Assembly (NCBI GenBank): GCA_037128595.1
Contig: JBAXWB010000011.1
Coordinates: 17,714 to 81,713, forward strand
DNA length: 64,000 bases
Direction: 5' to 3'
DNA from: a bacterium
GTDB lineage: Bacteria > Verrucomicrobiota > Kiritimatiellia > CAIKKV01 > CAITUY01
Shown: piece by piece, positions 20,858-36,695 of the stretch
Position numbering within the stretch: position 1 is the first letter of the stretch
Layout: each line of letters begins with the position of its first letter
Notes under the pieces: model-generated
Told to the model about the DNA's origin: nothing
Database searches by the model: none
The model's input: the letters and a program-made list of their open reading frames with translations, nothing else
Translations under genes and position numbers: made by a program

Positions 20858-22642
20858 TCACTTCACTAATTCAAGTATTTCAGGAGAGACTTTCGCAATC
20901 AACGCACGGCAATGCTTGAGGACTTCCGCCGCGGTCTCGCAGGAAAGGGCCGTCTGCGCCAGTTCGATGGCCTGGGCGCGGGTGACACTGCGAATGAGCT
21001 CCTTGACGGCCGGTACAGAGGCGGGCACCATGCTCAACTCATCGATCCCCAACCCCATCAGCAGCAGCGTCATCAGCGGGTCGCCCCCCATCTGGCCGCA
21101 GACCCCCACCCAGATCCCCCGGGCATGCCCCGCTTCCACGGTGTGCCGAATCAGCCGTAGCACCGCCGGATGCGTGGGCTCATAGAGATGGGCCACCCGG
21201 TCGTTCACGCGGTCCACGGCCAGGGTGTATTGCGCCAGGTCATTGGTCCCGATACTGAAAAACGAGACGTGCTTGGCGATAATGTCTGCCGTCAGCGCGG
21301 CCGAAGGGATCTCGATCATGACACCCACTTCAATCAGGGCATCAAAGGCGATATTTTCCTGCCGCAACTCCGCCTTGCACTCCTCCAGAATCGCATTGGC
21401 CCGGATGACCTCCCCGACGTTACTGATCATGGGGTACATGATCCTGACCTTTCCGAAAGCGCTCGCCCGCAAAATGGCCCGCAACTGGGTTTTAAACATT
21501 TCCGGCTGGGCCAGGCAGAACCGGATTGCCCGGAAACCAAGAAAGGGATTCATCTCGGGCGGCATCCTGACCGAGGAGGCGAACTTATCCCCGCCAAGGT
21601 CAACGGTCCGGATAATCACCGGCTCCGGCGCCAGTAATGAGGTCACCCCTTTATACGCGGCCAACTGCTCCGCCTCGGTCGGTAGCTCGTCGTGGGCGAT
21701 ATACAGGTACTCCGAACGCAACAGGCCCACGCCGTGGGCACCATATTTCCGGATTTCCCTGGCTTCCTCCAGAAACTCGATATTGGCCGAGAGGATCACG
21801 CGATGATGATCCAGCGTCTCGGCCGGCAGATCACACAGCTGCGTCAGCCGGGCTTCGATCATCTTGCGTTGCTGCGCCAGCTTATTATATTTCTTAAGGG
21901 TGGCCTCAGAAGGCCGCAGAATCACGACCCCTTCGGTGCCATCCATCAGGATCCAGTCACCCGGGGAAAGCTTGTGGGTCACATCGCCCAACCCGACCAC
22001 CGCCGGTATTCCCATCGCCCGGGCCATAATGGCGGAATGCGAGGTCCGGCTCCCCATGTCGGTCGCAAACCCCAGCACCAGGCTCCGTCGCAGCGTGGCC
22101 GTTTCAGAAGGAGAAAGATCGGGGGAGACCACGACGCTTTTTTCTTTCAGGCCATCCAGCGCATGGGATTTTTCACCCGTGAGATTGCGCAACACCCGGC
22201 GGGCCACATCCTTGAAGTCAGAAACACGTTCCCGGAGGTATTCGTCTTCCACGGCCGAAAGCGCTTCCACATACCGGCTCGTCACGGCGCGCACCGCAGA
22301 TTCGGCATTCAGATGATCGGATTCAATCAGCCGGATCGTTTCATCAAAAAACGCGGCATCGTCCAAAATCAATTTATGAACGTCAAAAATGGTGGCATCC
22401 TGATGGCCGATGGCACGTTTAACATTATTCTGGATGACGGTAATCTGACGCCGGGTCACCACGACGGCCGCTTTGAACCGCGCCAGTTCAGCGGCAATCT
22501 CTTCGGGCTTGAGGGTTCGTTCGGAGAATTCAGTTTCTTCGGGACTGACCTTGTAGACGGGACCGATGACCACACCTGGGGAGACCCCCACGCCATGCAG
22601 GATGATGTCTGCCAGCCCACTGGGCCCCTGCACATTCGTCAT
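20858..22642 (-). CDS. ptsI: phosphoenolpyruvate-protein phosphotransferase (PTS Enzyme I)
   Basis: EI N-terminal domain and a phospho-His region (GSRTSHSAIMARAMGIPAVVG). PEP-utilising C-terminal TIM barrel. Confidence 0.93.
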   Translation of the reverse strand: MTNVQGPSGLADIILHGVGVSPGVVIGPVYKVSPEETEFSERTLKPEEIAAELARFKAAVVVTRRQITVIQNNVKRAIGHQDATIFDVHKLILDDAAFFDETIRLIESDHLNAESAVRAVTSRYVEALSAVEDEYLRERVSDFKDVARRVLRNLTGEKSHALDGLKEKSVVVSPDLSPSETATLRRSLVLGFATDMGSRTSHSAIMARAMGIPAVVGLGDVTHKLSPGDWILMDGTEGVVILRPSEATLKKYNKLAQQRKMIEARLTQLCDLPAETLDHHRVILSANIEFLEEAREIRKYGAHGVGLLRSEYLYIAHDELPTEAEQLAAYKGVTSLLAPEPVIIRTVDLGGDKFASSVRMPPEMNPFLGFRAIRFCLAQPEMFKTQLRAILRASAFGKVRIMYPMISNVGEVIRANAILEECKAELRQENIAFDALIEVGVMIEIPSAALTADIIAKHVSFFSIGTNDLAQYTLAVDRVNDRVAHLYEPTHPAVLRLIRHTVEAGHARGIWVGVCGQMGGDPLMTLLLMGLGIDELSMVPASVPAVKELIRSVTRAQAIELAQTALSCETAAEVLKHCRALIAKVSPEILELVK

Positions 22643-22647
22643 GGTGG

Positions 22648-22965
22648 TTATCCCTCGAAGAACTTGCTGTCCATCAGCGACTGGATTTCATCAAGGGCGG
22701 CCTCGGCGTCGACTCCGTCAGCAATGATCCGCAAGACGGTCCCGAAGCCAGCCTCAAGGGTCATGAGGCCCATGATGCTTTTACCGGACACCTTGTTGCA
22801 GCCCTTCTCAACGGTGACATCGGCCATGAAGCGGTTCGCGGCCTTTACAAAAAGAGCCGCCGGCCGTGCATGAAGCCCGAGCTTATTCTGGATCTTCAGT
22901 TCACGAACCAGAATCCGTTCGGACGCTTCGCGTTTTTGGCCCGCGTTACTCATCGTGTTTGTCAT
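22648..22965 (-). CDS. ptsH: phosphocarrier protein HPr
   Basis: GLHARPAALFVKAANRF (His15 region) and KVSGKSIMGLMTL (Ser46 region). The start may be the internal MSNAG. Confidence 0.88.
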   Translation of the reverse strand: MTNTMSNAGQKREASERILVRELKIQNKLGLHARPAALFVKAANRFMADVTVEKGCNKVSGKSIMGLMTLEAGFGTVLRIIADGVDAEAALDEIQSLMDSKFFEG

Positions 22966-23920
22966 CCTTCGCCAACACGGATATCAATTTATCGTCCAAT
23001 TCCTTGGCGGCATCGTGACCCAGCCGTTTCAGCATCTGATCCAAGGCCGCCACTTCCACGATGTTGGCGACATCCCGCCCGGGGGCAACCGGAATTTCAA
23101 TGCTGGGGATATCCACCCCCAGAATGGTGCGCTTCTGGGTGATCTGGCCGCTCCGGTCCTCTGCGGAAATCATTTCCGGACTACACAAATTAATCACCAG
23201 GTCCAGTTGTTTTTCGTTGCGGACCGAAGCTACCCCGAAAAGACTGGGCACATGGATGATGCCCAGACCCCGAATCTCCATATGATAGCGGATCACCCCG
23301 ACGGGCGAACCGATCACATCATTGGAACTATCGACCCGGAGCGACGTCACATCATCCGACACCAGGCAATGACCCTTCTTGATCAGCGCCAACGCCGTTT
23401 CGCTTTTTCCCACGCCGGGTTTCCCCACAAGCAGCACCCCCACGCCCAGGATCTCCACCATCGTGCCTTGCAGCACCATGTGGGGCGCCAGCAGATTCCC
23501 CATGATGACGGTGGCGCCATTGATAAAATTCTTGGTGATCGCAGGCGTACGCAGGAGGCACGTCTTGTACTCCTCGGACAATTCGATGAGTTCCGGCAGG
23601 ATCCGATGGCGCCGGGTGACCACAATACAGGGAATGTGGCGCATGAACACCTGCTTCAACCGCTCACGACGATCCCCCTCGCTCAGGGAGGCCAGATACG
23701 CCATTTCAGCGTGCCCGAGCGTTTGAATACGGCGGGGAGCAAAATACTGGAAGAAACCCGTTAATGCCAGACCTGGCCGGTTGATGGCGGATTCTTCAAT
23801 CCGCCGGTTCAAACCGGACGCGCCTGCCACCAGGTCAAGATCCAGACGGTCTTTCGCCGCCTTTAAAAAATCCTCGACCGTCGCGAAAGACTTCTCCACC
23901 GCCGCATCGCTCATACTCAT
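22946..23920 (-). CDS. hprK: HPr kinase/phosphorylase
   Basis: Walker A GVLLVGKPGVGKSETALALIKKGHCLVSDD and the C-terminal HprK signature are present. Confidence 0.9.
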   Translation of the reverse strand: MSMSDAAVEKSFATVEDFLKAAKDRLDLDLVAGASGLNRRIEESAINRPGLALTGFFQYFAPRRIQTLGHAEMAYLASLSEGDRRERLKQVFMRHIPCIVVTRRHRILPELIELSEEYKTCLLRTPAITKNFINGATVIMGNLLAPHMVLQGTMVEILGVGVLLVGKPGVGKSETALALIKKGHCLVSDDVTSLRVDSSNDVIGSPVGVIRYHMEIRGLGIIHVPSLFGVASVRNEKQLDLVINLCSPEMISAEDRSGQITQKRTILGVDIPSIEIPVAPGRDVANIVEVAALDQMLKRLGHDAAKELDDKLISVLAKDDKHDE

Positions 23921-24255
23921 TCCACTTCCACAACTGGCTCAAGGTCACGGAGCTTGCTATTCCCCTTGTGCTCATGACGCTTGTCCAACGTCTTCCGCAG
24001 CTGGGCCTCCACTTTATCTACGGCTTCGTCAATCGAGGCATACATATTCTCGGAGGTGGCCGTCCCTTCCAGTTGAATATGACGCGCCGCATGGACAATC
24101 ACCTCGGCGAGATGGGTGAATTTCTGGATATCCAGAATCATATGGATTTTATCAATCCGCGGGAATTCAGCCACCAGCTTGTCAAGACGCTTGCCGGCGT
24201 AATCCCGCATGCTGTTACTCACATCCACATTTCTGCCTGTTATTTCGATTGTCAT
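23917..24255 (-). CDS. hpf: ribosome hibernation-promoting factor (HPF/RaiA family)
   Basis: MTIEITGRNVDVS...DYAGKRLDKL is an HPF start. Start is chosen at the ATG preceded by AGGAC. The ORF-track start is 22 codons longer. Confidence 0.85.
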   Translation of the reverse strand: MTIEITGRNVDVSNSMRDYAGKRLDKLVAEFPRIDKIHMILDIQKFTHLAEVIVHAARHIQLEGTATSENMYASIDEAVDKVEAQLRKTLDKRHEHKGNSKLRDLEPVVEVE

Positions 24256-24274
24256 AATTTTGTCCTCCCGGTAC

Positions 24275-25030
24275 TTACATACTGAATCGCGGCCCCAAAT
24301 ACAACTCCCGACTAACATCATCGTTAATCAGAAATTCACGAGGTCCCTCTCTTAATACCCGGCCTTCGCAAATCAGGTAGGCCCGATCCACAATCGCCAG
24401 TGTTTCCCTCACACTATGATCCGTAATCAGAATGCCCAGCCCCCGCTTGCGTAGACTTTTAATAATCTCCTGGACATCATAAACCGCCAGGGGATCAACG
24501 CCGCTGAAGGGCTCATCCAGCAGAATCATCGCCGGATCCGTGACCAACGCCCGGGCGATTTCCAGACGTCTCCGCTCCCCCCCACTCAACGTGAACGCCA
24601 TCTGGTTGGCCAGGCCGGAGATCCCCAGGTCCTCCATGAGTTCCCCCATCCGTTGCTTCCGCTGCCGGGAGCTGAGATTCCGGGTTTCCAGAATGGCCAT
24701 AATATTATCAGCAACGGTCAATTTGCGAAAAATAGAGGGTTCCTGGGCCAGGTACCCCATGCCCATGCGCGCCCGCTGAAACATGGGCTTGGCGGAGACA
24801 TCTTTTCCCTTGAAAAAGATTTTACCCCGGGTTGGGCGAATCAGGCCCACAATCATATAAAACGTGGTGGTTTTTCCCGCCCCGTTCGGCCCCAGCAGCC
24901 CGACAATCTCGCCCGCATTGACGTTCACACTGACGCCATGTACCACGGTTTTTCCGCGATAGGCCTTGACCAGTTCCTCGGTTCTGATTAACGGATCCAC
25001 AACATCCTCATTTCTGGGGCTTAGCCGCAC
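24275..25030 (-). CDS. lptB: LPS export ABC transporter ATP-binding protein LptB
   Basis: LVKAYRGKTVVHGVSVNVNAGEIVGLLGPNGAGKTTTFYMIVG plus LSGGERRRLEIARAL. The true start may be a GTG about 10 codons downstream. Confidence 0.88.
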   Translation of the reverse strand: MRLSPRNEDVVDPLIRTEELVKAYRGKTVVHGVSVNVNAGEIVGLLGPNGAGKTTTFYMIVGLIRPTRGKIFFKGKDVSAKPMFQRARMGMGYLAQEPSIFRKLTVADNIMAILETRNLSSRQRKQRMGELMEDLGISGLANQMAFTLSGGERRRLEIARALVTDPAMILLDEPFSGVDPLAVYDVQEIIKSLRKRGLGILITDHSVRETLAIVDRAYLICEGRVLREGPREFLINDDVSRELYLGPRFSM

Positions 25031-25604
25031 TCTTGGACTTCATCATGTCGCCGAGATCGCTTTTCCCTTCACCGGGCATAAAGGAGCCTGATGAATTGTC
25101 AATATGAACCTTGTCCTCATCACGGCTGTAAATGATACGCGAGCCGCGCAAGGTCATACCCTCCTGGGTAATCACCGGCTTATCGGTCAACACCGTGATG
25201 CCCGAGCGGACACTATACACCGCACGGCCACAAGTGGCCCGGCGGAACCCCTTGACGGGAGTCGCCTTCTTGCTGGACACGGCCGCCGGACTCAAATCCT
25301 GCTCAATGTCAACCGAACCGACGGCGGTCACCATTTCCGGTTCCCGGTTGGTCGTCATCAACATGGTAATCTGATCCGCCTTGATCGTCACCCGGGGATC
25401 ACTCACCACAACCGACCCATCCAACACCAGCACATTGCGTGAAATATCATAGTCCGCCCGTTTGGCCGAAATATGGGTTTCACTCGCGCCACTACCCATC
25501 GTCATCCCTGCTGCAGCCGAAGACTCACGCTCCTGAGCACGGGCCAGAATTGCCCCCGAAAAAATCAGGCAACCCGCCGCCATCGTTATCCATACCTTCT
25601 TCAT
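25008..25604 (-). CDS. lptA: LptA (OstA N-terminal domain) periplasmic LPS transport protein
   Basis: Signal peptide, OstA-like beta-jellyroll and position between lptC and lptB. Confidence 0.75.
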   Translation of the reverse strand: MKKVWITMAAGCLIFSGAILARAQERESSAAAGMTMGSGASETHISAKRADYDISRNVLVLDGSVVVSDPRVTIKADQITMLMTTNREPEMVTAVGSVDIEQDLSPAAVSSKKATPVKGFRRATCGRAVYSVRSGITVLTDKPVITQEGMTLRGSRIIYSRDEDKVHIDNSSGSFMPGEGKSDLGDMMKSKSAAKPQK

Positions 25605-25605
25605 G

Positions 25606-26097
25606 TCACTTTTTCTCCTTCAGCAGGGGCCACACCTTGACACGTCCTGACATCACCATATGAAAGTTATTCAGAATTTCAATCCGCTGCTTTTCGGCGG
25701 ACCATCGAAATCCCTTCCCTGTAATCTCCACATTATCCCTCACAATTTTCATGTCGGCATTGGAGAAGGCATCCTTGGTCTTCTGATCCACCGTGCAGTG
25801 CTCAGAGGTCAGGACGGCATCCACCTCATTGGTGGTACTCGTCACCAGCCGCTTCTTGTACATGATAATCTGCAACCCGGTAATCCGGATCTTGCTGTCC
25901 GCAAGCATTTTGGCTTTTTTGCCGAAAATCTCGGATTTCAGCATTCCGTTTGCATCGAATTCAGGGATGCGGAAGTCATCGATCTCCCGGTCTTCCATGC
26001 CGGCCAGCTGCTGGGAATACGCCACCGTCCCGCAGGCGAGCCACGCCAGCAGCAGAAGTCCGGTCACCCGATTACGCAAGACGCACGACATCATCAA
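25606..26097 (-). CDS. lptC: LptC-like LPS export protein
   Basis: N-terminal membrane anchor with an LptC-fold periplasmic domain. Conserved position upstream of lptA. Confidence 0.6.
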   Translation of the reverse strand: MMMSCVLRNRVTGLLLLAWLACGTVAYSQQLAGMEDREIDDFRIPEFDANGMLKSEIFGKKAKMLADSKIRITGLQIIMYKKRLVTSTTNEVDAVLTSEHCTVDQKTKDAFSNADMKIVRDNVEITGKGFRWSAEKQRIEILNNFHMVMSGRVKVWPLLKEKK

Positions 26098-26911
26098 TTT
26101 TCCTTAACGTCCGCCAGAGTTGCCCCATGGCTGAAAACGCGATTGTATTATCTTTATCGGACAGTGCCTCCTCGGGCTTGACATGGGTTTCAATAAACAC
26201 CCCGTCACATCCCGTGGCCACCGCAGCCCGCGCCAACGCCGGCGCCCAGCAGCCATCTCCACCCGTCCGGTCCCCGGCTCCCCCGGGTCGCTGCACGCTG
26301 TGGGTGGCGTCAAATATGACCGGATAGCCGAACTCACGCATTACCAAAAGACTCCGCATGTCGGCTACTAAATTATTATAACCGAATGAGACCCCGCGTT
26401 CCGTCAGGATAATCTTCCGGTTCCCGGTCGACTCGATTTTCTGGATCACGTTGCGCATATCCCCGGGCGCCATGAACTGGGCTTTCTTCACATTGACCGG
26501 AATACCCGTATTTCCGGCCGCCACCACCAGGTCGGTCTGGCGGCAGAGAAAGGCGGGAATCTGGATGATGTCGACCACTTTGGCGGCCCGGGCCGCCTCT
26601 TCCGCCGTATGGATGTCTGTCAATACCGGGACGCCATACCGGGCCTTGACCTCAGCCAGAATCTCAAGCCCACGCTCAATTCCCGGTCCACGATACGAGC
26701 GCACGGACGACCGGTTGGCCTTGTCGTATGAGGCCTTGAAGATCAGTGAAATTTTCTGAGTCTTGGCCAGGCGCACCAGTTTGCCGGCAATCTCCAGACA
26801 CCCCTCGCGACTCTCAATCACACAGGGACCTGCAATCAAGACCAACGGGCGTTTCGCCCCTACGCTCACATTCCCGACATCCACCGCTTTACTCATGGTT
26901 CCCGCTCTCAT
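26072..26911 (-). CDS. kdsA: 3-deoxy-8-phosphooctulonate synthase (Kdo-8-P synthase)
   Basis: PLVLIAGPCVIESRE and the DAHP-synthase-like TIM barrel. Confidence 0.93.
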   Translation of the reverse strand: MRAGTMSKAVDVGNVSVGAKRPLVLIAGPCVIESREGCLEIAGKLVRLAKTQKISLIFKASYDKANRSSVRSYRGPGIERGLEILAEVKARYGVPVLTDIHTAEEAARAAKVVDIIQIPAFLCRQTDLVVAAGNTGIPVNVKKAQFMAPGDMRNVIQKIESTGNRKIILTERGVSFGYNNLVADMRSLLVMREFGYPVIFDATHSVQRPGGAGDRTGGDGCWAPALARAAVATGCDGVFIETHVKPEEALSDKDNTIAFSAMGQLWRTLRKIDDVVRLA

Positions 26912-26912
26912 T

Positions 26913-27674
26913 CTATTTAAGTGTCAATCCCGCACGCCTCAAAGCCGCTTCCGCCAGCGCCACATCCTCAGGGGTATCCACCCCCAAGCCAATTTCCTGC
27001 GTCTCGACCACCTTCATCCGCGCCCCCAGATGCAACGCGCGCAGCTGCTCCAGTTTTTCCGACAACTCCAATACACAGGGAGGCGTCGCCACCAACCGAT
27101 CCAGAAAGGCGCGCCGATAGGCATAAATCCCCACATGCCGCCAATGGATCAAGCCGGCCGGCGCCGCATCCCGCACAAAGGGAATCACTGATCTCGAAAA
27201 ATATAAAGCCTGACCCTCTGCCCCAGATACCACTTTCACCACCGAGGGCTTGTTCAACTCCTCCGGCGAATGAATGGGCGTGGCGGCCGTGGCCATATCC
27301 CAGTCCCGAGCTTTCAGCATAACCTCCGCCAGTCCATTGATCAATCCCGGATCAATGAGCGGCTCATCCCCCTGAATATTGATCACAATCCCGGCGTCCC
27401 GGCCGGCCACCGCTTCGGCCACCCGGTCCGTACCTGAGGGGTGATCCACCCGCGTCATCACGGCCGTCCCGCCCAGTGACGCCACCACCGAGCGGATCCG
27501 CTCGTCATCGGTCGCGACCAACACCTCGTCCAACCGGTCCGCCTGGCGAACCCGCTCCAACACCCATTGGATCAGCGGTTTCCCGCAAATCGGGGCCAGT
27601 GCTTTGCCGGGCAACCGCGTAGAAGCCCACCGCGCAGGAATCACCCCCACCACTCGTTCGCGTTTAGAGTTCAT
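26913..27674 (-). CDS. kdsB: 3-deoxy-manno-octulosonate cytidylyltransferase (CMP-Kdo synthetase)
   Basis: VVGVIPARWASTRLPGKALAPICGKPLIQWV. Start is placed at MNSKRER. The longer ORF-track start overlaps the upstream gene by over 100 nt. Confidence 0.9.
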   Translation of the reverse strand: MNSKRERVVGVIPARWASTRLPGKALAPICGKPLIQWVLERVRQADRLDEVLVATDDERIRSVVASLGGTAVMTRVDHPSGTDRVAEAVAGRDAGIVINIQGDEPLIDPGLINGLAEVMLKARDWDMATAATPIHSPEELNKPSVVKVVSGAEGQALYFSRSVIPFVRDAAPAGLIHWRHVGIYAYRRAFLDRLVATPPCVLELSEKLEQLRALHLGARMKVVETQEIGLGVDTPEDVALAEAALRRAGLTLK

Positions 27675-28674
27675 TGGCCTCCACACTGGCGATGAGTTCT
27701 TCCGGCGAACAGGTGGCCGTCCCCAGCTTCCCCACCACCACGCCGGCGGCATTGTTGCCAAGCACCGCGGCTTCATCATAGGTCGCGCCAGCCGCCAGGG
27801 CCATCACGCAAGTGGCGATGACGGTATCCCCTGCCCCGCTGACGTCATACACTTCCCGTGCCCGGGTGGGGATCACGCGGGGAGCGCCGTGCCGGGCCAT
27901 CATGTACATTCCATTGGAACCCAGCGTCACGAGCAGCTGCTCCGGCTCCCAGATCTTCATCAGGGCTTCGGCCGCTTTCCGCAATGCCACATCATCCATG
28001 GGATTCCCGGGCGGCGGGGCCTTGGCGGGCAGACCGGCGCAGACCTGCGCCTCCTTATAGTTCGGCGTGGCCAGCGTAATACCCTTGATGGTCAGATTCA
28101 AATTGTCTTTGGGATCGAGCCCGACCGGGATCCCCTTCTTTTTGGCCGCGCGCAACACCGTGTCCATCACTTCCTGACACACAATGCCCTTGCTGTAATC
28201 TTCGATCACCACCCCGTCGCAGGTCTCCATTTCGAGGGCAATCAGCTCACAGAAGGCGTGAATATCATCCGCAGGCAGCTGGGGATCACTCTCCCAGTCC
28301 ACCCGGACCACCTGCTGGCGGTCTGCCAGCACGCGCATCTTCACGGTGGTCTGCAGGCCGGCCACGGCACGCACCGCATGGGTGCAGATTCCCTGGCCGC
28401 TCATCAGCGCCAGCAGCTCATGCCCGGCCATGTCATTCCCGACAATCCCGGCAATGACCGCCTGTCCGCCGAACGCGCAAATATTACTGGCCACATTGGC
28501 TGCGCCCCCCGGCACCTGCCGTTCCCGGCCCACCCGCACCACCGGAACCGGGGCCTCGGGGGAAATGCGATCCACCGAACCGTGAATATATTTGTCCAGC
28601 ATCAAATCCCCGACGACCAGTATCCGCTGCCGTCCGAGCCTCTTTGCCAACTGCTTTACGCGTGCGATATTCAT
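27664..28674 (-). CDS. hldE: D-glycero-beta-D-manno-heptose-7-phosphate kinase (HldE domain I / RfaE1, PfkB fold)
   Basis: ILVVGDLMLDKYIHGSVDRISPEAPVPVV with a C-terminal PfkB GAGD motif. No adenylyltransferase domain is present. Start at MNIARVKQL overlaps the upstream stop (ATGA). Confidence 0.85.
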   Translation of the reverse strand: MNIARVKQLAKRLGRQRILVVGDLMLDKYIHGSVDRISPEAPVPVVRVGRERQVPGGAANVASNICAFGGQAVIAGIVGNDMAGHELLALMSGQGICTHAVRAVAGLQTTVKMRVLADRQQVVRVDWESDPQLPADDIHAFCELIALEMETCDGVVIEDYSKGIVCQEVMDTVLRAAKKKGIPVGLDPKDNLNLTIKGITLATPNYKEAQVCAGLPAKAPPPGNPMDDVALRKAAEALMKIWEPEQLLVTLGSNGMYMMARHGAPRVIPTRAREVYDVSGAGDTVIATCVMALAAGATYDEAAVLGNNAAGVVVGKLGTATCSPEELIASVEANEL

Positions 28675-30276: not shown

Positions 30277-32232
30277 TCATTTTGCCAGCTGGCGGACCTT
30301 GTCCCGATAGTCACACACGGCCGTAACATAGGCCGCGTGGCTCCAGGTCAGGGGTGAGACCGACAGCGGGGTCCCCGTCCGGGGATCAAGCTGTTCCGCA
30401 AGAACCCCGCTGGGTAGCGCATGGGCCGCCGTCCATTCAAGCAAGCTCAACGCCGGCGCCAGATCAGCCGTACCCTTTGCCCGGGCAATAAGGTACTGGG
30501 CGTACCAGAGGGTGGTGACAAACCATGGATTCCCTGGAAAATGAGGTTGAGTCCGGTAGTAAGGATCATGCTCATAGCGCGCCAATCCTCCCACCGGTGT
30601 TCCGCACCACAATTTCTGATGGAGGGAATTGAGGGTGCTGGCGACAACAGGATCGTCTGCCGGAAGCATGCCGTACGCAAATATCCCGCAAATACTGGCG
30701 TCCATAATCCGGTCCATTTCAGGAGGCCCACCCGGCGGGAACACCATGCCACGGGCAAAACAGCGGGATTCCGGCAGAACCAGATGGCGCAAGGCCGCCT
30801 CACGCATGAGTTCGGCGCCCTTCTTATAATCCCGGGCCAGCTCATGTTCACCGAAGGACGCCACAAACTGCGCCGCCGCCATCAACCCACCATATACGGC
30901 CGACACCGTGAACGTCTGCACCGACTGTCGCTCCTCCCACAGGTCATAACTGGCCAGCGGCAGTCCCGTGGATACGTCGCGGTAGTTCATCAGGAAATTG
31001 GCCCCGTTCTTGATCAATGGCCGGTACAACGGGGTGATGAATTCAATATCCCGGCAGCGGCGATAATGCTCCCAAAGTGCCCAGATCACCAAGGCAGTCT
31101 CATCCTCCTGGATCGGCAGTTGCCCGCGGCTGTTTTTGACCCAGGGATGCCAGCTGCTGGCGGGCATGCCGGACGGGGTGTACTTATGCAGGAAATACCC
31201 CTCAGGTTCGACCACCGAGGCGCAAAACTGAAAAAAGGCCCTGCTGGTCTCGGGATAACCGGCCCGATCCATCGCATGGGCCACTATGGCCCCGTCACGG
31301 GGCCATACATAGCTGTAGGTATCCCGATTATATTGGACGTTATCGGAATCATTCGCCGCCAGAATCGCCCCGTTCCGGTCGGTCTGGGTCCGGATAATCA
31401 GGAGACTCCGGCGATACAGGCGCATGACGGCTTCAGGTAACCCCACCCCATCGTCCGGCTCTTTGCGCACCCACAAACGCCAGTAGTCGTGAGTTCTCCG
31501 GAACAGCCGGACGGGGCCACGCTTAAGCACCATCCGGTTCAGGTCACGGACCTCACTCAAGTCGGTCCCCATCGCAATCCACACCCACGCCGTCTCTGTC
31601 GCCCCTGGCTCCACCGTCAGATGCAGCGCGACCACTGAATCCACGGAGCCCTGGGCAATGGCATTGCCGCTCAACTCACCATCTTCCGCATCTTTCCAGG
31701 TCCCCTCAAACTCATTCCGCCGCTTGTTGCCGGTGGCGACCTGATCAAAGCCATGCCGCCCGCATAGCAGGGCGTTCACCATGAAATAGCGGTCATTTTT
31801 ATAATGAAGCAGGCCTTCAAGCTCCGGACGAAGGGCCGCCGTATCGCCGATGTCGTTGCCCGCGATGCTGAAATCAAATCCCAGAAAAAGCCTTAGATGG
31901 CGGACGGTGGCCCCGGAATTAATGAGGGTGATCCGCCGGAGGAAAAGAGGATCATGAAAATCCACCAGATCATTGAAGGTGAGGCTGAGCCCGCGGGCGG
32001 TACTCGACCAGGTCAGTTCGGTAACCAGCGTATCAGGCAGGTAGTCAAGACGACGCTCCCAGCCAGCGGGCAACCATTCAAAAACCCCATCCTCCCAAAG
32101 ACCGACCCGGAAGCAAGCCCCGTTCACGTGATTCTCCTGCCCGATGTGGGGGTAATAGAGATCACGAACCAGCCCCTCCTGATCGTACGCCACCAGAATC
32201 TGTCCATTTGCTACGGGGATATCGCGTGCCAT
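30277..32232 (-). CDS. glycoside hydrolase family 15 protein (glucoamylase / trehalase-like (alpha/alpha)6 barrel)
   Basis: N-terminal beta-sandwich plus C-terminal GH15 catalytic barrel pattern. Roughly 650 aa, which is typical of bacterial GH15 trehalase/glucodextranase. Confidence 0.7.
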   Translation of the reverse strand: MARDIPVANGQILVAYDQEGLVRDLYYPHIGQENHVNGACFRVGLWEDGVFEWLPAGWERRLDYLPDTLVTELTWSSTARGLSLTFNDLVDFHDPLFLRRITLINSGATVRHLRLFLGFDFSIAGNDIGDTAALRPELEGLLHYKNDRYFMVNALLCGRHGFDQVATGNKRRNEFEGTWKDAEDGELSGNAIAQGSVDSVVALHLTVEPGATETAWVWIAMGTDLSEVRDLNRMVLKRGPVRLFRRTHDYWRLWVRKEPDDGVGLPEAVMRLYRRSLLIIRTQTDRNGAILAANDSDNVQYNRDTYSYVWPRDGAIVAHAMDRAGYPETSRAFFQFCASVVEPEGYFLHKYTPSGMPASSWHPWVKNSRGQLPIQEDETALVIWALWEHYRRCRDIEFITPLYRPLIKNGANFLMNYRDVSTGLPLASYDLWEERQSVQTFTVSAVYGGLMAAAQFVASFGEHELARDYKKGAELMREAALRHLVLPESRCFARGMVFPPGGPPEMDRIMDASICGIFAYGMLPADDPVVASTLNSLHQKLWCGTPVGGLARYEHDPYYRTQPHFPGNPWFVTTLWYAQYLIARAKGTADLAPALSLLEWTAAHALPSGVLAEQLDPRTGTPLSVSPLTWSHAAYVTAVCDYRDKVRQLAK

Positions 32233-32241
32233 GGCGCCTCC

Positions 32242-32874
32242 TTACCTGCTAATCCATTCTGCCGCCTCACGTGCCTTGCCCCGGGCGGCCTCAATGGTGT
32301 CTTCGACGGCCTTTGCGGAAACCCCATCCAGCGGCTCGACTTTAACGAACCGAACGTCTGTGATTCCCACAAATCCGAAAACGGCCCTCAGATGGGGTTC
32401 CACATGATCAAACAGGAGATCGGCGGGCGAGGTATACTCCCCGCCGCGGGAGGAGATCACCACCATACGCCGTCCCGTGAGAAGTCCCTCCGGGCGGCCC
32501 TTCACATAACGGAATAAGTACCGGGGCTGGATCAGGATGTCGATGTATTGCTTCAAGATGTATGGCACACCGAAATTCCACATGGGAGTACTGATCAGGT
32601 AAGCTTCAGCCGCCTTGAACCGCTCGATCTGGTGCTCGATCTCTTCCCATGTTTCACGCAACTCCCCATAGAGCTCCCGGCCGCCCAGAAGCACATATTT
32701 TCCATCCACCTGACGGGCAGTAAGGGGCGGAAGCGGTTCGTGGAACAAGTTGATCTCGTCGACCAGCCAGTCGGGATGGATCTCCCGGAACTGCCGGAGA
32801 AAAGCGGTGGCGACCTGAAGGGTTCTGGACGTCTCGCCACGTGGACTCGCGATCACATGCAGAAGCTTTTTCAT
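32242..32874 (-). CDS. azoR: FMN-dependent NADH-azoreductase (flavodoxin-like fold, AzoR/ACPD family)
   Basis: MKKLLHVIASPRGETSRT...LISTPMWNFGVPYILKQYID is typical AzoR. Confidence 0.82.
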   Translation of the reverse strand: MKKLLHVIASPRGETSRTLQVATAFLRQFREIHPDWLVDEINLFHEPLPPLTARQVDGKYVLLGGRELYGELRETWEEIEHQIERFKAAEAYLISTPMWNFGVPYILKQYIDILIQPRYLFRYVKGRPEGLLTGRRMVVISSRGGEYTSPADLLFDHVEPHLRAVFGFVGITDVRFVKVEPLDGVSAKAVEDTIEAARGKAREAAEWISR

Positions 32875-32958
32875 ACACCTCCCTTTCTGGGTGGCAGTTT
32901 ACTCCCGCGCCCTTCTTCATCCAAGAGGTTTTTGCCCCACACGTAACTGACATTCTCC

Positions 32959-32987
32959 TTGAGAAGGGAGCGAATGGAGGGTATATT
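32959..32987 (+). promoter_or_regulatory. sigma-70-type promoter candidate for rpoN (TTGAGA-N17-TATATT)
   Basis: The -35 and -10 hexamers have a 17-nt spacer and lie about 25 nt upstream of the rpoN ATG. Confidence 0.3.
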
Positions 32988-33011
32988 CGCGCCTGACACA
33001 GAGAGCATAAA

Positions 33012-34445
33012 ATGGCGGAACAAGGTTTACATTTAAGTCAGGAAATGCGCCTGCATATGGTGCTGGCGCCCCAATTGCGCCAATCCCTTGAGATGCTCCA
33101 GGCGCCCGTACTTGAGCTACGTGCCATGATCCAGGCCGAGCTGAACAGTAACCCCACGCTCGAGGAATTGCCCGCCGATGCCCCCCAAATCGAAGTGGAG
33201 AAAATCAATACGGAGCTGGAAGACCATAAGTCCATGGATTTCCGGAAAGAGTTCGAAATCCTGACGCGGCTGGACGATGAGTGGAAAGATTACTTTTTCC
33301 AGGAGCGGGAACGGAATTCCTATTCCGCCCACAGCGAGGAAAAGCGCGATTACCTCTACGAGTCCATCACCCAGACCCAGTCGCTTCAGGAGCACCTGCT
33401 CCATCAGCTGGCCCTGGCCGAATTCGGCGAGACCGACCGGGCCCTGGGGGAACTCATTATCGGCAGTATCAGTGATGATGGCTATCTCGCCTCATCCATT
33501 GAGGAACTGGCCGCCACGTGTAACGCCGATTTAGGCCACATGCAGGATATCCTCGCCATCATCCAGGACTTTGACCCGCTGGGCGTCGGCTCCCGCGACC
33601 TGCGTGAATGCCTGCTGTTCCAGTTGGAACGTCTAGGCAAGGCGGAAAGCACGGCCGGACGAATCGTCTCCGGCCATCTGGAACGGCTCGCCTCGCATAA
33701 ATTGCAGGAGATTGCCAAGGCGCTGAAGCTCCCGATCGAAGAGATTCAGGCAGCCGCCAATTTCATTGCCACCCTGGAACCCAAGCCCGGCCGCGCCTAT
33801 GGCTCTGAGTCTTCCCCCTACGTCACGCCGGAAGTGGTGGTTCAAAAGGTGGAAGGCGTTTATGTCGTCCTGATGAATGACGATGACCTCCCCCGGTTGC
33901 GGATCAGCAAGCATTACCGTTCACTGATGAATAACGAAGGCACGGGCGCCGAGGTGCGGGACTACATCCAGGACCGCGTCCGGTCCAGCGCGTTTCTCAT
34001 CAAAAGCATCCACCAGCGCCAGCAGACGATCTTCAAGATCGCGACCGAAATCGTGAAGGTGCAGCAGGACTTTTTTGATCAGGGCATCGCCCATCTCAAA
34101 CCCCTGACCATGTCCGAGGTGGCCACGGTGGTCGGTCTGCACGAGACCACGGTCAGCCGCGCCGTGGCGGGCAAACATATCCAGACCCCGCAGGGGATTT
34201 TCGAGATGAAGTATTTCTTTACGCCCGGCCTCAAAACCGATGCCGGCGGCGTCGTCTCCAATAAGACGGTCAAGGACAGCCTGGCCTCACTCGTCGCCTC
34301 GGAAGACCCGGAACACCCCCTGTCCGACCAGGAACTCCTTGAAATCCTGAATGAGCGGGGTATCCAGATCGCGCGCCGCACTGTCGCGAAATACCGGATT
34401 GCCTTGAAAATCGCCCCGTCGCATATGCGGAAGAAATACGGATAA
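33012..34445 (+). CDS. rpoN: RNA polymerase sigma-54 factor
   Basis: N-terminal activator-interacting region (LSQEMRLHMVLAPQLRQSLEMLQ), core-binding domain and C-terminal RpoN box (ARRTVAKYR). Confidence 0.95.
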   Translation: MAEQGLHLSQEMRLHMVLAPQLRQSLEMLQAPVLELRAMIQAELNSNPTLEELPADAPQIEVEKINTELEDHKSMDFRKEFEILTRLDDEWKDYFFQERERNSYSAHSEEKRDYLYESITQTQSLQEHLLHQLALAEFGETDRALGELIIGSISDDGYLASSIEELAATCNADLGHMQDILAIIQDFDPLGVGSRDLRECLLFQLERLGKAESTAGRIVSGHLERLASHKLQEIAKALKLPIEEIQAAANFIATLEPKPGRAYGSESSPYVTPEVVVQKVEGVYVVLMNDDDLPRLRISKHYRSLMNNEGTGAEVRDYIQDRVRSSAFLIKSIHQRQQTIFKIATEIVKVQQDFFDQGIAHLKPLTMSEVATVVGLHETTVSRAVAGKHIQTPQGIFEMKYFFTPGLKTDAGGVVSNKTVKDSLASLVASEDPEHPLSDQELLEILNERGIQIARRTVAKYRIALKIAPSHMRKKYG

Positions 34446-34448
34446 ATC

Positions 34449-35675
34449 ATGTGGGCGCGCCTATCGCTGGCGGTACTGGTATGGGGATTCCCGCTGATGG
34501 CCAAGGCGGTTCTGTTCGATGCCACGGGCGATCCCGGTTACAACACCAATGCACCTGCCGGCCCGCTGGAGGGAAGCGGCTGGCAGTTCGAGGGGCAGTT
34601 CGGCGGCTTTCTGGGCACCGCGGTCGACCCGCATTTCTTCCTGACCGCCAAGCACATTAATGGCGACACTAACACCCCGTTTGTTTTTGAAGGGTCCAAC
34701 TACTACCCGATCGCTTCGTTCGTAGATCCCAATCCGGACGTTGACCTCCGTCTCTGGCAGGTCGCAGACCGGCTTCCCCGTTATGCCCCCTGCTATACCG
34801 GGTCAAATGAAGTTGGGAGGGCCCTGATGGTGATTGGGCGGGGCACCCAACGCGGCAGTGAGATCATCACCGAGGGGGTGACCAATGGGTGGCACTGGGG
34901 CCCAGTCGACAGCGTCATGCGGTGGGGAGTGAATCAGGTCGACGCCATCCGGCTTGCCGGCGACGCTCCCTATTTATACGCCACCTTCACTCATGGGGCC
35001 GGTTCCAATGAATGCCACCTGTCAAGCGGTGACTCCGGCGGCGCCGCCTTCATTCAGGAAAATGGCGTCTGGCAATTAGCCGGCATCCATTACTCCGTGG
35101 ATGGCTCGTTCAACACCACCAACATCAGTGACGGAAAGTTCGACGCCAGTCTCTATGATGAGTACGGGCTCTACGTCGAAGACGGGGCTCAGTGGACAGC
35201 GGTTACCAATCATGTCGCCAGCGGATTCTACTCATCACAGGTCTCGGCTCACTATGCCTGGATGGCCAGCGTCATACCCGACTTCGACAGCGACGCCGAC
35301 GGACTTCCTGACTGGTGGGAACAACGGTATACCGGCCAGATCCATGGATTATCTGCCACCAACGATAACGACAACGATGGTCTCAGCAACTACCAGGAAT
35401 GGGTGGCCCGTACCGATCCCACCAATGCCGCCTCGGTGTTTCGTGTTGATGCCTTGCAGTGGTCAAACGGCGTAGCGGTACTGACCTTTCAAGGCTGGTC
35501 AAACCGCCTGTATGGCGTCGAGGCCCGTGAAATTCCGCTCAACACGACTGATATCTGGACCAACATGACCCCCTCCCCATTTGCAGGCGCCGAGGGGCCC
35601 ACCTCATGGAGCGACCCCCATTCCCCCACTTCCCTCACAGGCCGATGCTACAGGTTATGGGTGATTGGGTATTAG
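34449..35675 (+). CDS. secreted trypsin-like (S1 family) serine peptidase with C-terminal Ca-binding-like D-x-D-x-D-G repeats and a beta-rich C-terminal domain
   Basis: Signal peptide. Triad motifs are LTAKHI (His), DVDLRLW (Asp) and GDSGGAAF (Ser). DSDADGLPDWWE and DNDNDGLSNYQEW resemble TSP3/dockerin-type repeats. Start lies 3 nt after the rpoN stop. Confidence 0.7.
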   Translation: MWARLSLAVLVWGFPLMAKAVLFDATGDPGYNTNAPAGPLEGSGWQFEGQFGGFLGTAVDPHFFLTAKHINGDTNTPFVFEGSNYYPIASFVDPNPDVDLRLWQVADRLPRYAPCYTGSNEVGRALMVIGRGTQRGSEIITEGVTNGWHWGPVDSVMRWGVNQVDAIRLAGDAPYLYATFTHGAGSNECHLSSGDSGGAAFIQENGVWQLAGIHYSVDGSFNTTNISDGKFDASLYDEYGLYVEDGAQWTAVTNHVASGFYSSQVSAHYAWMASVIPDFDSDADGLPDWWEQRYTGQIHGLSATNDNDNDGLSNYQEWVARTDPTNAASVFRVDALQWSNGVAVLTFQGWSNRLYGVEAREIPLNTTDIWTNMTPSPFAGAEGPTSWSDPHSPTSLTGRCYRLWVIGY

Positions 35676-35684
35676 GGATGGGGA

Positions 35685-36695
35685 TTATGAACCCTGCGTC
35701 TTGCGGATCAACCCTTCAAGCACATGCCAGGCCGCCCCGCTGTCAATCGTCTTCTGAGCCAAGCGGAAGCCCTCTGCGAAGTCCCGAGCTTTCCCGCCGG
35801 CGATCAGCCCGGCCGCGGCATTCAGGCAGACAATATCCCGCCGGGGGCCCTTCTCACCCTTCAGAATCGCACTCGTGATCACCGCATTCTGTTTAGGATC
35901 CCCGCCGGCCAGGGTTGAAAGATCGGCATAGTCCTCCATCACCGTCAGGGGGTCGAAATTATAGGTCCGGACAGCCCCATCGCGTAGCTCACTGATCCGG
36001 GTCGTACCGGTCACCGTGATTTCATCCATCCCATCCTGCCCATGCACCACAAACACACGCTGACTTCCGAGATGTTTTAGGACTTCGGCAAACATCTCGG
36101 TCAATTGCGGCGCGAACACCCCCAGCACCTGACAACGAGCACCCGCTGGATTGGCCAGCGGCCCCAACAGGTTGAAAATCGTCCTGAAGCCCAGCTCCCT
36201 GCGCGGACCCATGGCATGCTTCATGGCTGGATGCAGTTTCGGCGCAAACAGGAATCCGATCCCCACCTCATGGATACATTCCTCCATGACATCGGGCGAT
36301 ACCTCCAGATTCACGCCCAACTCCGCCAACACATCCGCCGAACCGCATTTGCTGGTGATGGAGCGGTTCCCGTGCTTGGCCACGGGCACCCCGGCCCCGG
36401 CGACCACAAAGGCGGCGGTGGTTGAAATATTGAAGGTGCCCAAAGCGTCTCCGCCCGTCCCGCAGGTATCCACCACCGTCTTGCCGCGGGGATCAATAAA
36501 GACCGCATGCCGTCGCATGGAGGCGCAGGCCCCCGTCAATTCCTCAATGGTTTCGCCCTTGATCCGCAAAGCAGTGAGAAAGGCTCCCAATTGGGCCGGG
36601 GTCGCGTCCCCATCCATGATCCGGTCAAAGGCCGCCACCGTTTCCGGGGTGCTCAGGTTCTGGCCTGCGATCAACTTCTGCAGGACCTCTTTCAC
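35685..36695 (-). CDS. trpD: anthranilate phosphoribosyltransferase
   Basis: GAFLTALRIKGET...VDTCGTGGD signature. Confidence 0.93.
   Translation of the reverse strand: MKEVLQKLIAGQNLSTPETVAAFDRIMDGDATPAQLGAFLTALRIKGETIEELTGACASMRRHAVFIDPRGKTVVDTCGTGGDALGTFNISTTAAFVVAGAGVPVAKHGNRSITSKCGSADVLAELGVNLEVSPDVMEECIHEVGIGFLFAPKLHPAMKHAMGPRRELGFRTIFNLLGPLANPAGARCQVLGVFAPQLTEMFAEVLKHLGSQRVFVVHGQDGMDEITVTGTTRISELRDGAVRTYNFDPLTVMEDYADLSTLAGGDPKQNAVITSAILKGEKGPRRDIVCLNAAAGLIAGGKARDFAEGFRLAQKTIDSGAAWHVLEGLIRKTQGS

Follow-up and report, generated by a model that had tools for sequence, protein, structure and literature searches.

A sigma-54 gene and a secreted S1 peptidase gene are probably co-transcribed in a Kiritimatiellia-type chromosome, in a pairing that looks like an accident of gene order

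The sigma-54 gene rpoN and a gene for a secreted S1 peptidase appear to form a two-gene unit in a Kiritimatiellia-type (PVC) chromosome, and we consider it about 75% probable that this is so and that the two genes came to be paired in one narrow clade by an accident of gene order. The two genes are adjacent in the window, the 64,000-nucleotide stretch of DNA that was analyzed. In the arrangement that we propose, a conserved sigma-70-type promoter would drive rpoN, and the peptidase would be read from the rpoN mRNA by ribosomes that may re-initiate at the adjacent ATG. The peptidase is predicted to be exported and to act outside the cytoplasm. rpoN would have become the neighbor, beside trpD, of a gene from a large, multi-copy, location-changing PVC peptidase family, and this peptidase gene would then have used the rpoN promoter. 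Some sister lineages may later have lost the arrangement, through deletion or separation of the peptidase gene, while rpoN and its promoter stayed unchanged. The locus contains the following features.

32949..32987, + strand: rpoN promoter, with a conserved block (GACATTCTCC), two hexamers and a variable spacer of 17 nt
33000..33005, + strand: purine-rich, Shine-Dalgarno-like AGAGAG, 6 nt 5' of the rpoN ATG
33012-34445, + strand: rpoN (sigma-54), ORF of 477 aa with a TAA stop
34443..34451, + strand: junction TAA-ATC-ATG, comprising the rpoN stop, a 3-nt gap and the peptidase start in the same reading frame
34449-35675, + strand: peptidase ORF, 408 aa
34449..34508, + strand: putative signal peptide, residues 1-20, read from the sequence with predicted AKA/VL cleavage
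34509..35288, + strand: chymotrypsin-fold (S1) domain, assigned by triad invariance, Foldseek and GDSGG alignment
35286..35432, + strand: two DxDxDG repeats of putative TSP3 type (calcium-binding-type) with short helices, assigned by motif positions
35433..35675, + strand: FN3-like beta-sandwich at the C-terminus, carrying a conserved R-[FC]-Y-R motif; the interval includes the stop codon
35685..36695, - strand: trpD (ORF list; Glycos_transf_3 in the gene calls of the relative L080)

The identities that the first-pass annotation gave to both genes hold. RpoN contains the activator-interacting, core-binding and DNA-binding domains of sigma-54 in order (PF00309, Sigma54_AID; PF04963, Sigma54_CBD; PF04552, Sigma54_DBD), all above their gathering cutoffs, and reaches 434 bits with the TIGR02395 equivalog model (cutoff 277). 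The TTGAGA-N17-TATATT promoter that had been proposed upstream of rpoN (-35 hexamer, 32959-32964; -10 hexamer, 32982-32987) scores 10/12 against the sigma-70-type consensus in a consensus scan. Comparison strengthens this assignment: both hexamers, the flanking block and the Shine-Dalgarno-like sequence are invariant in seven relatives, including some without the peptidase, and the spacer between the hexamers varies.

The peptidase is assigned on its sequence and predicted structure to a divergent S1 subfamily. Its AlphaFold2 model (pLDDT 88.7) adopts the double beta-barrel of the S1 fold, and Foldseek relates it with a probability of 1.00 to chymotrypsin, tryptase, kallikrein and Streptomyces griseus trypsin (TM-score on target 0.59-0.68). 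The catalytic triad follows the His-Asp-Ser order (H69, 34653-34655; D99, 34743-34745; S196, 35034-35036) and is invariant across 39 homologues, and S196 resides in a GDSGG motif whose region aligns with the Ser195 region of chymotrypsin. Although the peptidase shares the barrel, the residue order and GDSGG with S1 members such as Streptomyces griseus trypsin (1oss) and chymotrypsin, it is only 10-16% identical to them and scores below the Pfam gathering cutoffs of Trypsin_2 (17.6 vs 27.6 bits, E 0.0066) and Trypsin (13.7 vs 20.6 bits, E 0.054). A sequence search of solved structures with the full-length profile likewise gave marginal chymotrypsin matches only (E 0.03). The peptidase also differs from these S1 examples in its His residue, rather than Asp or Ser, at the position that aligns with chymotrypsin residue 189, in a conserved N-terminal SGWQ[FY]EG block that is specific to the PVC family, and in the addition of putative TSP3 repeats and an FN3-like domain. 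The DxDxDG motifs of the repeats lie at residues 280-285 and 306-311; the protein scores 24.0 bits (E 3.4e-5) with the TSP3_bac model (PF18884), whose cutoff is 25, and the repeats are conserved within the Kiritimatiellia subgroup of the family. The C-terminal domain is a seven-stranded beta-sandwich with FN3 topology, and its profile retrieved nothing meaningful from solved structures. At the opposite end, the N-terminus MWARLSLAVLVWGFPLMAKA/VLF resembles, by eye, a putative Sec signal peptide. N-terminal hydrophobic stretches align across the 39 homologues, and the AlphaFold2 model places a helix at residues 2-11 and low pLDDT at residues 11-18. Thus, the signal peptide, the two DxDxDG repeats and the beta-rich C-terminus that had been described for a trypsin-like peptidase are all present in the sequence.

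The rpoN-peptidase pair is confined to a narrow clade in which RpoN is at least 92% identical, and the adjacency was not found beyond this immediate clade. The peptidase gene is followed, 9 nt after its stop, by the stop of trpD, which heads a convergent trpD-trpG-trpE set. In three relatives (L085, L086 and L088; RpoN 94-96%, TrpD 91-92%), the peptidase is absent and rpoN is itself convergent with trpD, at a distance of 7-62 nt from stop to stop. In L165, peptidase and trpD are present and the 175 nt upstream contain no rpoN. A neighbor-joining tree of rpoN, which is a single-gene, unsupported tree, interleaves the lineages with and without the peptidase. Outside the clade, 76 rpoN loci were compared (RpoN 44-89% identical; L085-L088 are counted inside the clade), and no family member was found beside rpoN in any of them. 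Of the 79 genome loci that contain a family member, only one has rpoN nearby. Peptidase homologues at 56-62% identity occupy unrelated gene contexts, and the genes upstream of 76 family members include those for DUF3352 (10), PolX (8), CTP synthase (7), PNPase (5) and sigma-54 (1). The synteny comparison thus gives the outcome that the first-pass annotation had named as refuting, a linkage that is not conserved in relatives, and a meaningful link between a sigma factor and a protease is not supported. Because close relatives lack the peptidase or carry it without rpoN, the pairing looks like a shallow, dispensable and ordinary lineage-specific accident of gene order.

The patchy distribution could instead reflect a recent, perhaps repeated, insertion of the peptidase at the rpoN-trpD junction rather than ancestral presence followed by loss, which we judge unlikely. 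Such an insertion would fit the presence of the peptidase in some very close relatives and its absence from others, the many contexts in which members of this multi-copy family occur, and the peptidase identity (67-70%), which is far below that of RpoN (92-93%). However, the lower identity can be attributed to a dN/dS in the comparison with L080 that is approximately 10 times higher for the peptidase (0.166, indicative of purifying selection) than for rpoN (0.016). The dS of the peptidase in the same comparison (0.25) equals that of its neighbors (0.23-0.39), and its GC content (0.592) matches that of the flanking genes (0.576-0.603). Moreover, four lineages hold mutually closest peptidase orthologues in the same slot, and neither repeats nor mobile-element remnants are visible by eye at the junctions. 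We regard the peptidase as a real, resident gene; it has no paralogue in the window. The direction of change, loss or repeated gain, rests on the unsupported one-gene neighbor-joining tree.

Spacings of 3 nt are common between same-strand genes of operons and are unremarkable alone. At the junction of rpoN and the peptidase (GGA TAA ATC ATG TGG), a scan of positions 32700-35900 detected no terminator or promoter between the two genes, and the counts in the scanned interval are at chance level, with the exception of the rpoN promoter; an Rfam scan of the whole window gave no match. The tight junction noted in the first-pass annotation is borne out by both the sequence and the scan. Given the 3-nt gap without an intervening terminator or promoter, a shared mRNA is most likely, and rpoN and the peptidase are probably co-transcribed from the conserved sigma-70-type rpoN promoter. 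L080-L083 show the same 3-nt gap, and that of L167 measures 0-3 nt.

It is unlikely that expression of the peptidase depends chiefly on a promoter of its own within the 3' end of rpoN, with an adjacency that has no consequence for expression. This alternative draws on the L001 locus, whose two genes are 14 or 45 nt apart depending on the choice of start codon, and on the L165 orthologue, whose non-rpoN upstream region contains TTGATT-N18-TACAAT just before the start codon (by eye). However, neither a sigma-70-like match on the + strand within rpoN of the window nor a match to sigma-54 promoters close to the junction was found, and read-through from rpoN is unavoidable because of the 3-nt gap and the lack of a terminator. 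The idea of a sigma-54-dependent peptidase was also dropped because no match to TGGCAC-N5-TTGCW (up to two mismatches) precedes the peptidase gene; window-wide, such matches are fewer than expected by chance (19 vs 32.5).

Another alternative is a selected functional module in which the cell couples its level of exported protease to its level of sigma-54, for example within the proposed role of sigma-54 in controlling the cell exterior, and we consider such a module very unlikely. In its favor, sigma-54 has been linked to envelope functions (Francke et al. 2011, PMC3162934), the peptidase evolves under purifying selection, and the 0-3 nt junction is kept in the window, L080-L083 and L167 despite peptidases that are 70% identical. 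The survival of this spacing in three lineages, despite a peptidase identity of only ~70%, means that selection may to some extent have acted on the coupling inside the clade even if the pairing itself is an accident. However, the three relatives with 94-96% identical RpoN lack the peptidase and retain an unchanged rpoN promoter, and L165 keeps the peptidase with no rpoN immediately upstream. The association is also absent in both directions elsewhere (0/76 rpoN loci outside the clade with a family member beside them, and 0/78 other genome loci with a family member that have rpoN nearby). In addition, a peptidase that is exported and works outside the cytoplasm, as predicted here, could not meet sigma-54 and therefore could not act on it.

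The first-pass annotation described rpoN as displaced from its usual site. The canonical rpoN locus of Proteobacteria and other diderms has the order kdsCD-lptCAB-rpoN-hpf-ptsN-rapZ-npr (Francke et al. 2011, PMC3162934). In the window, the corresponding genes and those that separate them from rpoN are arranged as follows, with identities taken from Pfam or NCBIfam scans or from the gene calls of relatives' contigs.

20858..27779, - strand: kdsB-kdsA-lptC-lptA-lptB-hpf-hprK-ptsH-ptsI cluster (NCBIfam equivalog matches for 9/9 genes)
26913-27779, - strand: kdsB
26072-26911, - strand: kdsA
25606-26097, - strand: lptC
25008-25604, - strand: lptA
24275-25030, - strand: lptB
23917-~24255, - strand: hpf
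22946-23920, - strand: hprK
22648-22965, - strand: ptsH
20858-22642, - strand: ptsI
30277-32232, - strand: GH15-family glycoside hydrolase (Pfam)
32242-32874, - strand: flavodoxin-like reductase (Pfam)

The window resembles the canonical locus in that the kds, lptCAB, hpf and PTS genes (hprK, ptsH and ptsI) follow the same order and rpoN lies within ~8 kb of them; the annotated genes of the cluster include neither ptsN nor rapZ. It differs in that rpoN is located outside the lptB-hpf interval, on the opposite strand and beyond yggS, and no lptB-rpoN-hpf operon is present. The NCBIfam matches confirm the earlier observation that lptCAB runs directly into hpf-hprK-ptsH-ptsI, and the lptB-hpf gap of only ~19 nt (by analogy with the L080 gene calls) leaves no room for rpoN. 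The cluster extends as pfkB, an unknown gene and yggS, followed by the GH15 and flavodoxin-like genes, and rpoN is transcribed divergently from this extended cluster, ~8 kb from lptB. The GH15-flavodoxin block (30277..32874, - strand) between yggS and rpoN is shared by the window and L085; L080, L001, L086 and L088 lack it and have yggS as the divergent neighbor of rpoN.

The order of the kds-lpt-hpf-PTS genes is identical in L080, L081 and L001, and lptB abuts hpf without rpoN in the close relatives L001 and L080 and in the Verrucomicrobiia genome L011. No orthologue of LptB, LptA, Hpf, HprK or PtsH is encoded within 10 kb of rpoN at any of the 76 loci outside the clade. These comparisons speak against displacement as a special event. 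In Kiritimatiellia-type genomes, rpoN is instead followed by mfd, rpoD, trpD or the peptidase gene; mfd follows rpoN in 14 loci, and a divergent MBL-fold hydrolase gene lies upstream of rpoN in 25 loci. This hydrolase-rpoN-mfd context (L093-L154) is similar to the window in that rpoN is separate from lptB-hpf and a same-strand gene often follows tightly (for the majority of the 14 loci, at -1 to 125 nt). It is dissimilar in that the downstream gene encodes the transcription-repair coupling factor Mfd rather than a secreted peptidase; the window yielded no mfd and no MBL-fold hydrolase gene. We infer that an rpoN outside lptB-hpf is the lineage norm and not a peculiarity of the window genome, as judged from RpoN identity and a few named MAGs, with most comparison loci being metagenome contigs.

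The proximity to envelope genes raises a further reading, to which we give very little credence, that the PVC-specific S1 peptidase family is an envelope-maintenance factor repeatedly recruited beside LPS and envelope genes and that its fusion to the rpoN transcript was selected: eight Verrucomicrobiia loci have a family member divergent from kdsB, another Kiritimatiellia contig has one after an lpxK-murJ-murG-like-...-prmC run, and that of the window lies beside the kds/lpt cluster, but the eight kdsB-divergent members group in a loose sub-clade with no sister relationship to the clade of the window, and a general link between the family and LPS genes was rejected because unrelated housekeeping genes dominate the census of upstream neighbors. 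If this envelope reading were true, the transcript fusion would tie the peptidase to sigma-54, a proposed controller of the cell exterior. A literature search combining Kiritimatiellota and sigma-54 found no papers.

With the pairing read as an accident of gene order, the value of the analysis is mainly negative and methodological, in that an apparently odd operon of a sigma factor and an exported protease dissolves on comparison with close relatives. Similarly, the rpoN that seemed to be missing between lptB and hpf would reflect the usual arrangement of these PVC genomes. The analysis also yields two by-products, a survey of the genes that surround rpoN in Kiritimatiellia-type genomes and a large, divergent and uncharacterized family of S1 peptidases in Verrucomicrobiota and Kiritimatiellota that is barely detected by the Pfam trypsin models.

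Directly downstream of rpoN, in the same orientation, lies the gene of a predicted secreted S1-type peptidase, both taken from the ORF list:

33012-34445, plus strand, rpoN (sigma-54), with three sigma-54 Pfam domains and TIGR02395
34449-35675, plus strand, peptidase ORF of 408 aa

The identity of rpoN is certain, and its product scores 434 bits against TIGR02395 (cutoff, 277). The junction (34443-34451) reads GGA TAA ATC ATG, which confirms the 3-nt gap between the rpoN stop and the peptidase ATG described in the first-pass annotation and places the two genes in the same frame. Only TAA ATC parts in-frame rpoN from the peptidase, and stop-codon read-through would yield a fused protein. In the metagenome contig L081 (8584-9997), whose layout is otherwise identical, rpoN is split between two called ORFs of 222 and 247 aa, reflecting either a frameshift or an assembly error.

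Is the rpoN-peptidase linkage conserved? The synteny comparison answers in the negative, both from the rpoN side and from the peptidase side. Scanning metagenomes with aligned RpoN sequences yielded 80 loci (L085-L164), and the peptidase is missing from three close relatives, L085, L086 and L088 (RpoN identity 95%, 96% and 94%; TrpD, 91-92%), in which the rpoN stop lies 7, 62 and 7 nt, respectively, from the convergent trpD stop with nothing between. In L087 (RpoN, 89%), rpoN is followed by rpoD; this full-length primary sigma-70 gene (674 aa) begins 112 nt after rpoN, placing two sigma factor genes in tandem (L087:176-3746). In 14 loci with RpoN identities of 52-78% (L093, L095, L097, L099, L100, L102, L105, L107, L114, L117, L118, L121, L138 and L154), rpoN is followed by mfd, and an MBL-fold hydrolase gene is divergent upstream in 25 loci. 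The mfd gene, encoding the transcription-repair coupling factor, lies on the rpoN strand, often a few bases downstream. The divergent hydrolase, rpoN and mfd look like the common Kiritimatiellia-type rpoN context. Exact-protein look-ups added L080-L083, L167 and L165. L080-L083 (RpoN, 99%) share the window layout of rpoN, 3 nt, peptidase and trpD, and L167 (RpoN, 92%; peptidase, 70%) has the junction TAG ATG ATG, likewise in the same frame, with trpD after the peptidase. L165 (peptidase, 69%; TrpD, 93%) has the peptidase-trpD pair, but the 175 nt ahead of it contain no sequence coding for RpoN.

A scan for the peptidase family in one genome per GTDB species identified 79 loci, and rpoN adjoins the peptidase in only one, the Kiritimatiellia MAG locus L001 (RpoN, 93% by tblastn; peptidase, 67%), whose peptidase is the sister of that of the window in the family tree. 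At the loci of the next-closest peptidases (L002-L005, 58-62%), rpoN is not adjacent. On the contigs of the homologues P0016 and P0021 (56-58%), the gene lies 3' of an lpxK-murJ-...-prmC run or alone. A Pfam census of upstream neighbours for 76 family members found DUF3352 (10), PolX (8), CTP synthase (7), PNPase (5), methyltransferases (5) and sigma-54 (1). In eight Verrucomicrobiia loci (L011, L021, L032, L039, L058, L067, L077 and L079), the homologue is divergent from kdsB, with kdsA upstream; its match lies at about 8001 in most of them, and L011 contains lptB-hpf too. In the peptidase tree these eight fall into a loose sub-clade, which is not the sister group of the clade containing the window, and family-level synteny with the Kdo/LPS cluster may be conserved. 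The sequence after the peptidase varies by lineage: just 9 nt precede trpD in the window, trpD in L165 is preceded by a long palindrome rich in A and T (TTAATCTTAATCGTAATC... with its complement; 1409-1546), and L001 (9210-9443) has a G/C-rich hairpin and then A-rich low-GC sequence to the contig end.

In a neighbour-joining tree of rpoN, peptidase-bearing and peptidase-less lineages are interleaved in one clade. In the simplest history, the common ancestor of this narrow clade would have had the order rpoN-peptidase-trpD, and its descendants would have cleanly deleted the peptidase at least once and separated it from rpoN once. Repeated insertion is the alternative, and a recent insertion rather than loss is a less probable rival; the peptidase matches its neighbouring genes in GC content, and its dS relative to the 92%-identical L080 orthologue is 0.25 (neighbouring genes, 0.23-0.39). 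Under either history, the pairing is dispensable. A selected functional module, which the recurrence of the 3-nt junction in L080-L083 would favour, is improbable compared with a gene-order accident: the peptidase is absent beside rpoN in the three close relatives. The peptidase gene is genuine and subject to purifying selection, with a dN/dS of 0.166 between the window and L080 (rpoN, 0.016; trpD, 0.061), and its non-synonymous evolution is roughly ten times that of rpoN.

The first-pass description of the peptidase as a trypsin-like protein with a signal peptide, two D-x-D-x-D-G repeats and a beta-rich C-terminal domain holds. H69, D99 and S196 (within GDSGG) are invariant among 39 aligned homologues, and for the confident AlphaFold2 model (pLDDT, 88.7) Foldseek gives a probability of 1.00 to chymotrypsin, tryptase, kallikrein and Streptomyces griseus trypsin. 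Pfam trypsin models match below threshold only. When solved structures were searched with a profile, GDSGG and its surroundings aligned with the chymotrypsin Ser195 region, and H190 (35016-35018), within a conserved E-C-H-L-S stretch containing the invariant E188, aligned with residue 189 at the floor of the S1 pocket. Because histidine occupies this position, the predicted substrate specificity is not trypsin-like. Judged by eye, the N-terminal sequence MWARLSLAVLVWGFPLMAKA/VLF looks like a Sec signal peptide. The S1 protease is followed by two TSP3-type repeats (DxDxDG motifs at residues 280-285 and 306-311; TSP3_bac slightly under its cutoff) and an FN3-like domain. Such a layout is ordinary for an exported bacterial enzyme, within an uncharacterised sequence family whose 589 database homologues include a few from named sources, mostly Kiritimatiellia and Verrucomicrobiota MAGs. 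Elsewhere in the window, two tandem plus-strand genes (8117-9625 and 9625-11145) each encode a trypsin-like plus PDZ_3 (Deg/HtrA-type) protein; the second, whose Trypsin_2 match is weak (E 9e-6, under cutoff), may be a degenerate protease.

The first-pass annotation also regarded rpoN as displaced from lptB-hpf, a reasonable expectation because the diderm rpoN context of lptABC, kdsCD, PTS-Ntr and hpf is documented (Francke et al., PMC3162934). Its gene order stands: NCBIfam assigns an unbroken minus-strand row from 27779 to 19628 (kdsB, kdsA, lptC, lptA, lptB, hpf, hprK, ptsH, ptsI and metK), with a lptB-hpf gap of ~19 nt (gene calls from a near-identical contig). The longest hpf ORF (23917-24321, minus strand) overlaps lptB by 47 nt; since the family match begins at residue 23 and gene calling gives the orthologue a length of 112 aa, the true start is probably near 24255. 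The displacement itself is not special. None of the 80 metagenome loci has an LptB (>=40% identity), LptA, Hpf, HprK or PtsH orthologue within 10 kb of rpoN, and none of the 76 outside the clade has a kds, lpt, hpf or PTS neighbour; the contigs of the four inside (L085-L088) stop short of where lptB would come, and that of L088 retains kdsA and kdsB. In addition, lptB directly abuts hpf in L001, L080, L081 and L011. The lptB-rpoN-hpf expectation thus appears not to apply to this lineage. As a divergent neighbour of the kds/lpt cluster, rpoN is not distant from it, and lies closer to it in the window's clade than in its relatives. The cluster continues with pfkB, an unknown gene and yggS, and in the window also with:

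30277-32874, minus strand, GH15 glycoside hydrolase and flavodoxin-like reductase, between yggS and rpoN

With this pair, found in the window and L085 and missing from L080, L001, L086 and L088, the rpoN locus shows another presence/absence difference, one distributed unlike that of the peptidase.

Within the region, the promoter proposed earlier, TTGAGA-N17-TATATT, is the top sigma-70-like match. Comparison gives stronger evidence: across seven aligned rpoN upstream regions, GAC(A/T)TTCT(C/A)C-TTGAG, GG(G/C)TATATTC and a Shine-Dalgarno sequence, AGAGAG, are all but invariant, and the spacer and sequence farther upstream diverge. Because relatives without the peptidase also carry it, this predicted promoter is assigned to rpoN. 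No terminator-like or promoter-like site was found between rpoN and the peptidase, and no sigma-54 promoter ahead of the peptidase. A peptidase promoter inside rpoN is a less economical reading than co-transcription, with which translational re-initiation at the peptidase would probably occur. Thus, we propose, with a probability of about three in four, that a bicistronic transcript from the conserved rpoN promoter carries an exported S1 protease functionally unrelated to sigma-54 through a lineage-specific accident of gene order. The rpoN-peptidase arrangement is real, yet ordinary.
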